The position numbers and the translations under genes are program-made. Positions 1,716 to 53,619 of a stretch of 64,000 bases of DNA are shown here, one piece after another. Below the pieces are notes generated by a model. The model had not been told where the DNA came from. It saw only the letters and a list, made by a program, of their open reading frames with translations, and ran no database searches. The stretch's first letter is position 1, and the number at the start of each line of letters is the position of its first letter. This DNA is from Lingula anatina (lineage: Eukaryota > Animalia > Brachiopoda): contig CM120647.1 in NCBI GenBank assembly GCA_051362555.1, positions 12,872,651 to 12,936,650 on the forward strand, read 5' to 3'.

Positions 1716-4700
1716 TCAAGGTGCATCATCAAGACAAAAAACGCCAGCATTTTTACTGTAACGGCATATTCCCTTCCCCCAACCGCTGCGCCTACACGAT
1801 CCAATGTTGGGTTCCCACCCTGTGCAGTCGATATCTTCTAACAATATGACTCCACTACCTTGCCCAAAATACGCTTCTCGTACGGCAACTGCGTTGGAAT
1901 AGGAAAGATTTAAGGACTTGCAGAAAACTCTGGCAGCAGTATTACCCCATGAGAAATCACAAACTGCTCTCCAGAGTCCATCATGATAGACTTCAACCCT
2001 TCCAGCGTATCCGCCTTTGAACTTTATACCAACAAGACGGTATGTGGAATCGTTCACAACAGCTGGAATGATAACATAAAACTTGTTATCACGGGTAGCA
2101 ATGTTCTCTCTCTCTCTGTGCTTGCGTGTGTGTGTGTGTGTGTGTGTGTGTGTGTTTACGTGTGTGCTTGTGTGCGGATGTGTTTATGTGTATGAGTGTA
2201 CATACATATACTGTTTGGAATAACAATCATATTTGAAACGGTTTACGGCTATGATGCGATCATTTGTAAACAAAACCACATGAAACTGGAGGCGTTACAA
2301 CTTTTTTCTTAAAAAGTGTTAACCTCTTATGAGGCACAATTTAGTGATAAATATAAAATCATATACTGCTATTAAAAAACGACTTTTACTTGGTTCACAA
2401 TTCCTACAAATGGTGTTTTCTTCCAAACAAGTGGTTCCATTTTGGCATAGCTGACTGCAACAATGATCTTTTACTGTAATGAGAACAACGAGAGTTCATA
2501 TTATCTTTTAATAAGCTAAAAGGACGATCTTATATTCGAAACTTAGAGTACTTTTGAAATACAATATCTACATAACCAAGAAAAACTAGAGGATCAGAGA
2601 GACAATGCCGCCTCCGGATATTGTACCACCAGCTGGAGTAAGCGCATTCGTATGGAAAAAAAGGAACACCACCACCAGTTTTGTGCTTAACAAGCTCTAT
2701 AAAAAGTTCTCAAAATATGCAAAAAAATGCGGAAAAAAACATAACTAAAAATGGTCCAATCATACAGATTTTAGAATTGACCTGTGTTTTTCTTACATTG
2801 ATCACTCCTGTGATTTTCTAGACCTATTTGTTTGCCTTGAAATGTGTTATCATTGTTGCAACCATAGTATGCTGACAAAAGTGAAAACCTAGGGGCAACA
2901 CTGGGCATATCTCTGCTAGTTTTGAAGATATGAGGGGCAAGAAAATATGCAAACAAACAAGTATGCAAAGTTCAGTTCTTGGTGAAAATGTAGGTCAAAG
3001 GTCAATTTCAAGGTCACAGTATATGACTTCCTATCCAAGTTCTATAGTAACCATGGGCATTTCTTTGCCAATATTGGAGATATAAAGGCCAGAAAACATG
3101 CAGTTCATAATAAAAAAGTAGGTGAAAGGTCAATTTCAAGGTCATAGTTAGATTGCCAGTATATGACTTCCTATTCAAGTTGACTTCCTATTTAGGCATA
3201 TTCAAGTTGACTTCCTATTTAGGCATATTTCTGCCAGTTTTTGAGATATAAGGGAAAGAAAATTTGCAAAGTGCAGTTCATAATGAAAAGTGGGTCAAAG
3301 GTCAATTTCAAGCTCACAGTTTTCAAAAATTTAGACAAGGGTGCGTTTCAACGAGTGTCACGCCCAGGCCAATGCACCGATTGAGACAAAAAATACCAGG
3401 GGGTTCTGGTTGAGATTATATGTGACCTAAATCTAAGAGATGGGGACACAGGTCCTTGCGGTCTAGGAGGAGAAGCGGTAACGGTGACTTGTATCCCACG
3501 ACACCCTGCGGAGCCAACGGAGCCAACGGCGCCGTACGAGACGGGTCGGGACTAACACCATGAGTACCGCCAGCGTACACGCTGGTGGTACTAATAACGA
3601 CATAATCACTATTTAGTACTTATCAGAATGAAGGAAATATACATAATCAGTTAACAGGCCAATCAGAGAAGGAAACACAATCAATCAGATGATAAACAAT
3701 ATGCAGATTTATCAACCTCAGCCAAAAACAATTATACAGTATATGATTGGTAAATATAATTATTAGTCTCACCTTCACAGTTTGTCCCATAGTACCCGAC
3801 AGGACACAAACACCGATGAGAATTCCCCACGTCAACGTCCCTCTATGCTGACAAGGAAAACTGGCACATTGACTAATTCCTAAATTTGAAAAGATATTAC
3901 AGTTAAACCAGGGAACGCGTCGCAGTAAAACAAACAAACACACACACATATACACGCACAGCGTTTTGTTTTCGGTATTATATTTATTATAAAGATGCAA
4001 GAAGAACATAAAACCCTACCTTGGCAGTTTTTCCCGTAATGCCCGAAAGGACACCAACAACGATAAGAGTTAATCCTTTCAAAACACGTTCCACCATTCT
4101 GACAAGGACGACTGGAGCAATCTTTGATTCCTAAAATACCCAAAATTAAATTAGACGTAAACAATGGGTCAAACTGGAAAAGACTATAGTGCTTTTTAAT
4201 CGTATCAAACAACATAAGGATCGCTAACTGTAACACAAATAAAATGAACTAATGATACATGTTATAACTATAGAATCGCCTTCTTACTATTTCACACACA
4301 CACACACACACACACACACACACACACACGCATACTGCTTTATTCAGTGTAATATTTATCATAAATTAAGGCACAAGAAGACCGTTATATCCCACCTTGG
4401 CAGTTTGTCCCGTGGTATCCGTCAGAACACAAACACCGATAAGAATTCATCAAGTCAACACACGTTCCACCATTCTGACAAGGATGACTGGAGCATTCAT
4501 TGATTTCTAAAATACACATAATGGGATAAGACGATATAAAATTGGTAAAACTGAAAATGGCTTCTTTAATCGTATCAAACAACACATGGATCACTAACTC
4601 TCATGAATTTTAATCTGCTTGTGATATATGTTATAACTATAACTATGTTATAACAAAGACAAACACACACACCTGATTACAAACACTAACAATGGGAAAC

Positions 4701-5713
4701 GCGTGGCCGTTAAAAACACATAAGCATATACATACACAGCAGTGTGTTTGGTGTTATATTTGATATAAAAGTGCAGGGGGAATTTTAAACCCCTACCTTG
4801 GCAGTCTGTCCCGTGGTACCCGACAGAACACAAACAACGATAAGAATTCACCATGTCAATACACGTTCCACCATTCTGACAAGGACGACTGGAGCATTCA
4901 CTGGTTTCTAGAATACCAAATATTGAAGATGATATAAAATGAGTTTACAAATAAATTCTATAACAATAACAGATAAATAATATATTTTTAAAATGTGCTT
5001 GGTTGCACAAAATAAAAAAAAAATTGCCTTTAATGCTTTTAATGCGTCAAAATATAAATATACAAAAAATAAATAAATGAATAAAAACATCAATTTCTGT
5101 TTCCTTACCCTTCAAACCATCATTTGCTGACATCAAGTGTTCTACATGCTGAGTAAGTTGGTCACTACACCCCTCACGTGCAAACACGAGCGACAAAACA
5201 AGGGCAATCATCATTGCAACACACATTATCCCTACTAACACCAATGCTGTGAGTAATCGCTTATGAACTTTAATCTTTGGTGGCTGTGTAATCCTTTCAT
5301 TGTTATTAACGGTGTTTTCGAAGGGATGGTGAATTATTAAGCTCTCGTAATCATTTGGTGTCTCCCCTGGAGTAAGTTCCACTTGTGATGACGTTCCGGG
5401 GCTGTATGTTGCATTTTCATACACGGTGTTTTTATTTGGACCGGTGGCACTTGCCGTGATCCCTACAATTTTTTTCATATTCAATTATACAGCGATTTGA
5501 ATATTTAAAACGATGGGGATTTCATTGAAGGATGTACATGCTTGAAAATATAAAAATAGAAAACCGATACGACTATTTTCTAATAAATTAGTCAAGCAGG
5601 TCTGACATTCATGCATGTTTTCTTAGTCATAATTCAATTACTATATATCGAATGTAAAGCAAATTTTTAAAATTCAACTTCTTTCTTGGATGCATACCTT
5701 CTTTGTATGCCAT
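1716..5713 (-). CDS. G1: type II TM EGF-repeat/SRCR receptor; one frameshifted EGF exon, so a pseudogene or dependent on exon skipping
   Basis: GT-AG exons: 5713-5698 (MAYKE); 5462-5109 (tail VYENATYS...[36 protein letters not shown]); EGF 4907-4797, 4506-4396, 4130-4020 (111 nt each); 3879-3773 (107 nt, 4-nt deletion); 2473-2390 (84 nt, internally deleted EGF, in frame); SRCR 2062-1716 (YRLVG...GRVEVYH...AGVFC). Confidence 0.8.
2125..2195. repeat. (GT)n microsatellite
   Basis: Direct dinucleotide run in the last intron of G1. Confidence 0.9.
2585..3597 (-). mobile_element. Non-autonomous Helentron/DINE-1-like (HINE) element in a G1 intron
   Basis: Sub-terminal inverted repeat GTACCACCAGC (2623-2633) / GCTGGTGGTAC (3581-3591); terminal hairpin 3564-3591; internal tandem units with GGTCAAAGGTCAATTTCAAGGTCA-like cores (~2993, 3121, 3293); CTAG end next to an A run. 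Confidence 0.6.
4292..4328. repeat. (CA)n microsatellite
   Basis: Direct dinucleotide run. Confidence 0.9.
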
Positions 5714-53300: not shown

Positions 53301-53619
53301 CCATTTGTGCATGGTTGACTCAGGCAGTAGTTGGCCACTTGGAAATATATATACATGATCAGATTCCGTTACAAAAATGTTATGACCTATATCCCAGAGA
53401 TCATAAATATTAATGTTTTGTGTATTGCCATGCTTGGAAAGTATGGAATTTAACTGCCATTTAAGATGTGAAAGTAAACCTATAAGATATTGGTGTAAAT
53501 CTTACTTGTTTCACAATTACTTCCGGTGTACCCATGGGGACAGCTGCAAGAATAGGTGATAGCATGACTCCTGCAAGTGGCACCATTTTGGCAAGGACGG
53601 CTGCGACAGGGATCCTCCT
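50338..53619 (-). CDS. G6: 3' part of a sixth paralog (at least 5 EGF plus SRCR); TM exon not in the window
   Basis: EGF exons 53619-53506, 53337-53224, 51630-51517, 51318-51208, 50946-50833; SRCR 50687-50338 (6 Cys, most divergent copy). All phase 1 with no lesions seen. Confidence 0.82.
51717..53003. mobile_element. CMC/EnSpm-like non-autonomous element in a G6 intron
   Basis: CCCAGC...GCTGGG termini; 2-bp TSD GT; many sub-terminal CAACGTTG palindromes; empty site GAAACGTATGTTTC in G3 at ~21505. An internal inverted pair at 51979/52465 suggests a nested MITE. Confidence 0.75.

Follow-up and report, generated by a model that had tools for sequence, protein, structure and literature searches.

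Six tandem EGF-SRCR units, five with tyrosine-motif tails, in Lingula anatina: a predicted type II receptor family apparently diversified by module shuffling

We analyzed a 64,000-nt stretch of the Lingula anatina assembly GCA_051362555.1 (contig CM120647.1, positions 12,872,651 to 12,936,650; hereafter "the window") in which six related gene units, G1 to G6, lie on the minus strand at 1717..53619, each with a single terminal SRCR exon behind a series of EGF exons. In five of the units, one exon encodes a tyrosine-bearing tail and a transmembrane (TM) helix, and the encoded proteins are predicted to be type II, single-pass membrane proteins with the N-terminus inside. The family appears to have diversified through shuffling of its tails, stalks and heads, without detectable positive selection, and within the databases searched its tail+TM module seems to be found in Lingula alone. 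We find it somewhat probable that these proteins are cell-surface recognition receptors that would couple binding at the tip to tyrosine signalling or internalisation.

The units were delineated by six-frame translation and motif scans. Their SRCR exons match Pfam PF00530 with E values of 8e-23 to 1e-30 in the five units scanned (G4 was left out of the scan). The EGF exons are phase 1-1, 111 or 114 nt long and flanked by AG/GT; counting broken ones, G1 to G6 have 5, 7, 6, 4, 4 and 5, as the four to seven given in the original prediction from this sequence would have it. The six same-strand paralogs described there are also present, although the tail+TM exon occurs in five of them (G1-G5) and several units are broken. 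The tail (expected at about 70-80 aa) is 71-73 aa long and is followed by the anticipated basic patch and one hydrophobic helix; the neck is just 5-24 aa long. Coding starts before the tail+TM exon: in G1-G5, a 16-nt start micro-exon (Met and four residues) lies upstream of it, and these micro-exons agree with the N-termini of RefSeq relatives. A tblastn search with all five tail+TM exons found none for G6 in the window; the DNA upstream of G6 is repeat-rich and has no long open frame, and either this unit is truncated or its 5' end lies outside the window. The Pfam scores, together with seven Lingula proteins of the same layout (described below), exclude a chance origin. G3 and G5 are each preceded by a non-coding stretch of about 1.9 kb; the two stretches (25125-27012 and 43013-44891) are 74% alike and may hold a 5' untranslated exon and promoter.

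The copies differ in their state. Two are whole: G2 is an open model of 496 aa with seven EGF domains, and G3 one of 440 aa with six (its SRCR is one Cys short). In G1, two of the EGF exons are broken (one frameshifted, the other degenerate), and an open model of 349 aa results once both are skipped. G4 is a pseudogene: its SRCR exon contains a TGA, one EGF exon is reduced to a half, and a 781-bp insert interrupts another. G5 is damaged, with a deletion in EGF1 and an EGF2 donor that reads AT; as a second GT four bases further on would leave EGF1 in frame, it may still yield a short protein. The proposed six-Cys head holds for G1, G2, G5 and G6, while G3 and G4 have five Cys. With three of six units broken or headless, the birth-and-death evolution suggested for the cluster is supported.

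Several features point to a type II topology, as originally proposed. By hydropathy, the first 30 residues of the gene models are free of hydrophobic stretches and one strong TM peak follows after about 72 residues; the 15 residues preceding it include 4-5 K/R vs 0-1 D/E. Within the start exon of G1, G2 and G4, the ATG has an in-frame stop ahead of it, and therefore no signal-peptide exon could be spliced in frame; the same test gave nothing for G3 and G5. EGF and SRCR domains are disulfide-bonded and hence must be extracellular. It is the lack of a signal peptide, the charge bias and this necessary placement that together lead to the predicted topology. Single-sequence folding was poor (mean predicted local distance difference test score 38) and unreliable in the neck, a helix at 64-97 being the sole confident element. 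All five copies in the window, G1-G5, share a Cys within the TM (GIxC), a possible palmitoylation or dimer site.

Both the tail and the head have conserved motifs. Three Tyr columns belong to the 10 near-invariant columns among about 70 in the tail: YxN is present in 13 of 15 tails and YxxPhi in 14, and a second Tyr is kept besides. In P0002 (XP_013397944.1), the tail module is repeated about three times, with 7 tyrosines ahead of the TM. YxN is a Grb2-type motif, and YESL-type motifs serve in SH2 docking or AP-2 endocytosis. At the other end, the best single-domain matches of the head are the SRCRs of MARCO, SCARA1 and SCARA5 (E about 3e-29), and an Asp-Asp...Glu pattern is kept in 14 of 16 SRCRs; its likeness to Ca2+ site 1 is one of motif and spacing (68 vs 67 in SCARA5). 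In SCARA1 and SCARA5, this site is required for binding modified lipoproteins, spectrin and ferritin (PMC8353498). On the reading we favor, the SRCR head at the tip of the EGF stalk would bind an anionic or Ca2+-bridged ligand, probably in the Ca2+-dependent manner of SCARA1 and SCARA5; the tail YxN and YESL would be phosphorylated, and the conserved tyrosines would pass on a signal or bring about uptake, presumably in defence or clearance.

The same motifs could also belong to housekeeping endocytic receptors of gut or mantle epithelium that take up ferritin, lipoprotein or debris, with YESL solely a clathrin sorting signal and the shuffling a neutral turnover of the array. YxxPhi is indeed the most conserved tail motif, all modules are under purifying selection, the ligands that class A SRCRs bind through the conserved site (PMC8353498) are of this kind, and SRCR genes are reported to be highly expressed in digestive tissues of nine species (PMC10855680). 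However, this explanation does not account for the conserved YxN and third Tyr, for the triplicated tail or for the exchange of the SRCR for another head described below, and we hold it to be possible but rather doubtful.

A profile of the five tail+TM exons retrieved 7 proteins among 7996 scored candidates, all from Lingula anatina and all with EGF and SRCR domains; six of these share one 459.6-kb scaffold. In a search of 1.84 billion cluster representatives, four sequences matched this profile: three Lingula proteins and one unrelated repeat open reading frame (ORF). The latter, P0129, was the lone non-Lingula profile match and was rejected as a tandem-repeat ORF without TM or EGF. A whole-protein search brought three further Lingula proteins, and the family count is a minimum: P0178, on another scaffold, is absent from both profile listings. 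In a small and biased screen of 239 proteins, the TM-then-EGF layout was exclusive to Lingula. Three fish proteins with SRCR only, hydrophobic near their start, were not counted there. Matches in an atlas search all scored below 0.9 and amount to no more than leads. With the last EGF and SRCR as query, the best 120 of 1895 matches were dominated by multi-SRCR proteins.

These gene models are already public, but under wrong names. RefSeq labels the relatives fibropellin, Notch homolog, DMBT1-like or crumbs, much as had been expected for fibropellin and DMBT1; each label stems from one shared domain type, and at least ten misnamed models are corrected by this analysis. Two models, P0001 (XP_023931956.1) and P0003 (XP_013397947.1), each have two TM segments and apparently fuse two adjacent family genes. 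In the literature searched, which included neither the PMC10855680 supplementary tables (these may give domains and expression by tissue for the family genes) nor a 2018 article on Lingula immunity, no description of a TM-EGF-SRCR architecture was found; to that extent the suggestion of an undescribed architecture stands.

P0178 (XP_013411335.1, RefSeq "protein crumbs homolog 1", outside the window) has a different head altogether. A uromodulin/GP2-type D8C/D10C domain replaces the SRCR, with E values of 6e-24 to 1e-21 to uromodulin/GP2 in four of four PDB matches, while its tail is 52% identical to that of G1, the TM and EGF types are kept, and its EGFs are 78-92% identical to family EGFs. 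No head of this type was found in the window. Neither this relative nor the mosaic pattern between assemblies, to which we now turn, was noticed in the original prediction.

Units in the window and in RefSeq pair differently from module to module. G2 and P0004 have equal length and layout, and their identity from start micro-exon and tail exon through EGF4 is 5/5, 115/116, 37/38, 38/38, 34/38 and 34/37, and from EGF5 to the SRCR 33/38, 30/37, 32/38 and 80/111 (99% in the tail and 72% in the SRCR exon). The tail exon thus identifies the window as L. anatina or a very close Lingula. Given a reported genome heterozygosity of 1.6% (PMC4595640), the 5' end of this pair, but not the 3' end, looks allelic. 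P0006 combines a tail of G3 type (95%) with an SRCR of G5 type (98%), and G3 and P0005, the latter with a tail of G2 type, have identical last EGFs. For 12 units (omitting G6, which has no tail, P3a with a short tail and P7 with an aberrant SRCR end), the tail tree and the SRCR tree conflict; in approximately unbiased (AU) tests of tail clades on SRCR data and SRCR clades on tail data, cross-module clades were rejected in 6 of 7 cases (p 0.0015-0.022). Synonymous divergence (dS) among G1-G5 is 0.72-0.99 between tail subfamilies vs 0.18-0.45 for SRCR exons, which fits a more recent exchange of heads. Variable SRCR columns concentrate in a few short stretches. The variety may have arisen by unequal crossing-over and gene conversion, eased by the phase 1-1 exons.

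Haplotype mosaicism is also what one might expect of an allorecognition or gamete-compatibility locus, with heads binding matching heads in trans, and the Hydractinia Alr cluster likewise has pseudogenes and Tyr-motif tails (PMC9546547). Nevertheless, Alr proteins are Ig-domain proteins, and in the Lingula family neither positive selection nor an ITAM was detected. Lingula, moreover, is a solitary animal. No evidence for the allorecognition role raised at the outset was found, and we regard it as very improbable.

Evidence of transcription comes from four RNA runs of the same species label, aligned to 8500-28400 of the window; most aligned reads fall on repeats. G2 is covered in run X7, where the listed variant sites (TM exon, EGF exon, SRCR exon and 3' of the stop) have about 10-20 reads and the SRCR exon about 20; X1 and X5 show none and X4 traces. 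In X7, 11 reads splice the TM exon to the second G2 EGF exon (ending at 12060), skipping the first; 16 join EGF2 to EGF3 (11517-11947), and 17 join G2 EGF5 to an exon that fits G3 EGF5 better than G2 EGF4. What is expressed therefore does not have the same set of exons as the G2 of the window, and it is another allele or a paralog beyond the window. The joining of TM to EGF exons that the proposed architecture implies is thus seen in one of the four runs.

Expression that is apparently restricted to one sample in four would suit membrane-tethered adhesion or matrix proteins of the mantle, shell, gamete or larval surface, in which EGF and SRCR domains would act as cell-cell or matrix contact modules. 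In this direction also point the frequent EGF shuffling in Lingula and the abundance of EGF proteins in its shell matrix (PMC4595640). Yet such a role fits poorly with a conserved Tyr tail and with the load of pseudogenes, and no corresponding entry was found in the parts of that source examined; we consider it improbable. An SRCR row in its supplement, taken as shell proteins, was rejected as such, as it gives collagen+SRCR counts.

A recognition receptor remains the explanation we prefer, and a number of results weigh against it. None of the 15 tails has an ITAM (immunoreceptor tyrosine-based activation motif), and the inhibitory counterpart (ITIM) consensus appears in just 4. The cation-site acids are missing from G1 and one SRCR Cys from G3, and P0178 has no sequon equivalent to uromodulin N275. 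The pooled ratio of nonsynonymous to synonymous divergence (dN/dS) stays below 1 in every module, at 0.57 (tail exon), 0.40 (SRCR) and 0.26-0.43 (EGF types). Among paralogs, tails differ more than heads. Only the G1-G2 SRCR pair reaches 1.05, and pairwise Nei-Gojobori comparison of the window paralogs (one pair saturated) detected no positive selection; the rapid diversification originally proposed is thus seen in the shuffling of modules and not in detectable positive selection. The groups in the AU tests were picked after the identities had been seen, and one of the seven, G1+P3b, was not rejected. The models in RefSeq are predicted, and two of them are fusions; errors in one or the other assembly could account for part of the mosaicism, although the RNA joints do not depend on the RefSeq assembly. 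Among the joints listed, none runs from EGF to SRCR and none from the start exon, and G2 is well covered in only one of four runs.

Coordinates of the units are collected in the table. Elsewhere in the window, repeats at 15570-16400, 17200-19100 and 23600-23800 have RNA reads in all four runs with many loose ends and are transcribed dispersed elements. An element at 45086-48922 has inverted arms of about 260 bp (94%), the right arm being present in about three tandem 314-bp copies, and has no long ORF. A foldback-like or MITE-like (miniature inverted-repeat transposable element) structure at 56430-58660 has inverted arms of about 500 bp (56565-57058 / 58104-58644, 77%) and internal repeats of 17-18 bp, and 58963-63965 is a satellite array of about 5 kb with 67-bp units and higher-order periods of 134 and 446 bp.

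Table. Positions of the exons and related features of the six units in the window
Feature	Position	Strand	Remarks
G1 start micro-exon, Met + 4 residues	6380..6395	-	in-frame stop immediately upstream, GT donor
G1 tail + TM + neck exon	5109..5462	-	
G1 three intact EGF exons	4020..4907	-	4797-4907, 4396-4506, 4020-4130
G1 two broken EGF exons	2360..3879	-	frameshifted ~3770-3879; degenerate ~2360-2473
G1 SRCR exon	1717..2062	-	6 Cys, cation-site acids lost
G2 start micro-exon	13782..13797	-	same as residues 1-5 of P0004
G2 tail + TM + neck exon	13160..13507	-	RNA joint to EGF exon ending at 12060
G2 EGF exons 1-7	9700..12816	-	12703-12816, 11947-12060, 11404-11517, 11015-11125, 10649-10762, 10082-10192, 9700-9813
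Truncated SRCR remnant within G2 intron	10240..10373	-	trace of internal duplication in G2
G2 SRCR exon	9087..9421	-	6 Cys, closes 496-aa model
G3 start micro-exon	24322..24337	-	identical to first 5 residues of P0006
G3 tail + TM exon	23121..23411	-	ITIM-consensus motif
G3 EGF exons 1-6	20670..22613	-	22500-22613, 22216-22329, 21725-21838, 21311-21424, 20948-21058, 20670-20783
G3 SRCR exon	20091..20425	-	5 Cys (one replaced by Trp), closes 440-aa model
G4 start micro-exon	30922..30937	-	
G4 tail + TM + neck exon	30278..30625	-	
G4 EGF region	28063..29946	-	intact 29833-29946, 28063-28176; a half exon at about 29680-29750; insert within a further exon
Insert in G4 EGF exon, like a long terminal repeat, 781 bp	28522..29302	.	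TG...CA ends, 4-bp target duplication; built of about three tandem copies of 250-267 bp
G4 SRCR exon, pseudogene	27468..27802	-	premature stop, TGA at 27662-27660
G5 start micro-exon	42182..42197	-	
G5 tail + TM exon	41444..41734	-	
G5 EGF region	39802..41214	-	EGF1 with deletion 41110-41214; EGF2 without GT donor 40490-40603; clean 40182-40292, 39802-39915
G5 SRCR exon	36051..36391	-	6 Cys
G6 five EGF exons	50833..53619	-	53506-53619, 53224-53337, 51517-51630, 51208-51318, 50833-50946
G6 SRCR exon	50338..50687	-	6 Cys, most divergent of six

How does this family compare with known systems? The proteins after which its members are named share only an SRCR or EGF module with it. Unlike DMBT1/CD163-type multi-SRCR proteins, the Lingula units have one SRCR each, an N-terminal anchor and no signal peptide. 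Fibropellin combines its EGFs with CUB and avidin domains and Notch with LNR and ankyrin, both behind a signal peptide; none of these partners, nor any further domain, appears in the Pfam lists of the relatives. The nearest layout seen outside Lingula appears to be that of Acanthaster planci XP_022104784.1 and XP_022104794.1, in which an EGF run precedes one or two terminal SRCRs; these differ by a signal-like hydrophobic stretch at residue 1 and have no internal TM or Tyr tail. P0178, in turn, differs from the decoy module of uromodulin/GP2 in having a type II anchor and no ZP domain. Hydractinia Alr resembles the family in its pseudogene-bearing cluster and tail motifs, whereas its Ig-domain proteins carry ITAMs (PMC9546547); no homology is claimed.

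Tyr-motif C-type lectin-like receptors share with the Lingula family a single YxxL-type tail motif and one recognition head. Among the vertebrate examples, which are type II and encoded by clustered, variable genes, Dectin-1 and CLEC-2 carry a hemITAM and Ly49/KLR an ITIM. The oyster has an example in CgCLec-HTM (PMC12842671). The Lingula head is instead an SRCR or D8C/D10C on a long EGF stalk, and no C-type lectin domain was found, Pfam yielding EGF, SRCR or D8C only. By analogy, and quite tentatively, the family might be a brachiopod counterpart of the vertebrate natural killer (NK)-type type II clusters: stalks differing in length would join one phosphotyrosine signalling chassis to interchangeable anti-microbial heads, either one of many SRCR variants or a domain of uromodulin/GP2 type; frequent recombination would leave individuals with different receptor sets, and ITIM and non-ITIM tails would form inhibitory/activating pairs.

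The closest functional parallel may be the class A scavenger receptors (SCARA1/SR-AI, MARCO and SCARA5). Like them, the Lingula proteins have a type II layout (by sequence here), a single terminal 6-Cys SRCR and the Ca2+ site 1 pattern, and tail and TM share one exon (PMC3567963). A collagenous Gly-X-Y domain is common to all class A scavenger receptors (PMC3567963); the longest Gly-X-Y run is 2-3 triplets in 16 of 16 Lingula units, and the family is not a class A member because this domain is absent. Lingula has, in addition, 5 separate collagen+SRCR genes (PMC4595640, supplementary table 30). Further features of the class are an alpha-helical coiled-coil neck, homotrimer formation and the binding and uptake of modified lipoproteins or polyanions. 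In the Lingula proteins, an EGF stalk stands in place of collagen and perhaps of the coiled coil, tails of about 72 aa with three conserved Tyr contrast with tails of 30-55 aa, and the Lingula genes form a tandem birth-and-death array whose tail/TM has no sequence match among class A receptors. A similar mode of action is nonetheless likely by analogy. The weight of the case is limited by the occurrence of the module in one genus and by how common lineage-specific SRCR expansions are; a total of 113 SRCR genes has been reported for Lingula. Within that limit, the class A scavenger layout would have been reached independently in a lophotrochozoan, with EGF for collagen and a tyrosine tail for a short one, and the cluster offers a compact case in which exon-level recombination appears to produce receptor variety up to the swap of a whole head.

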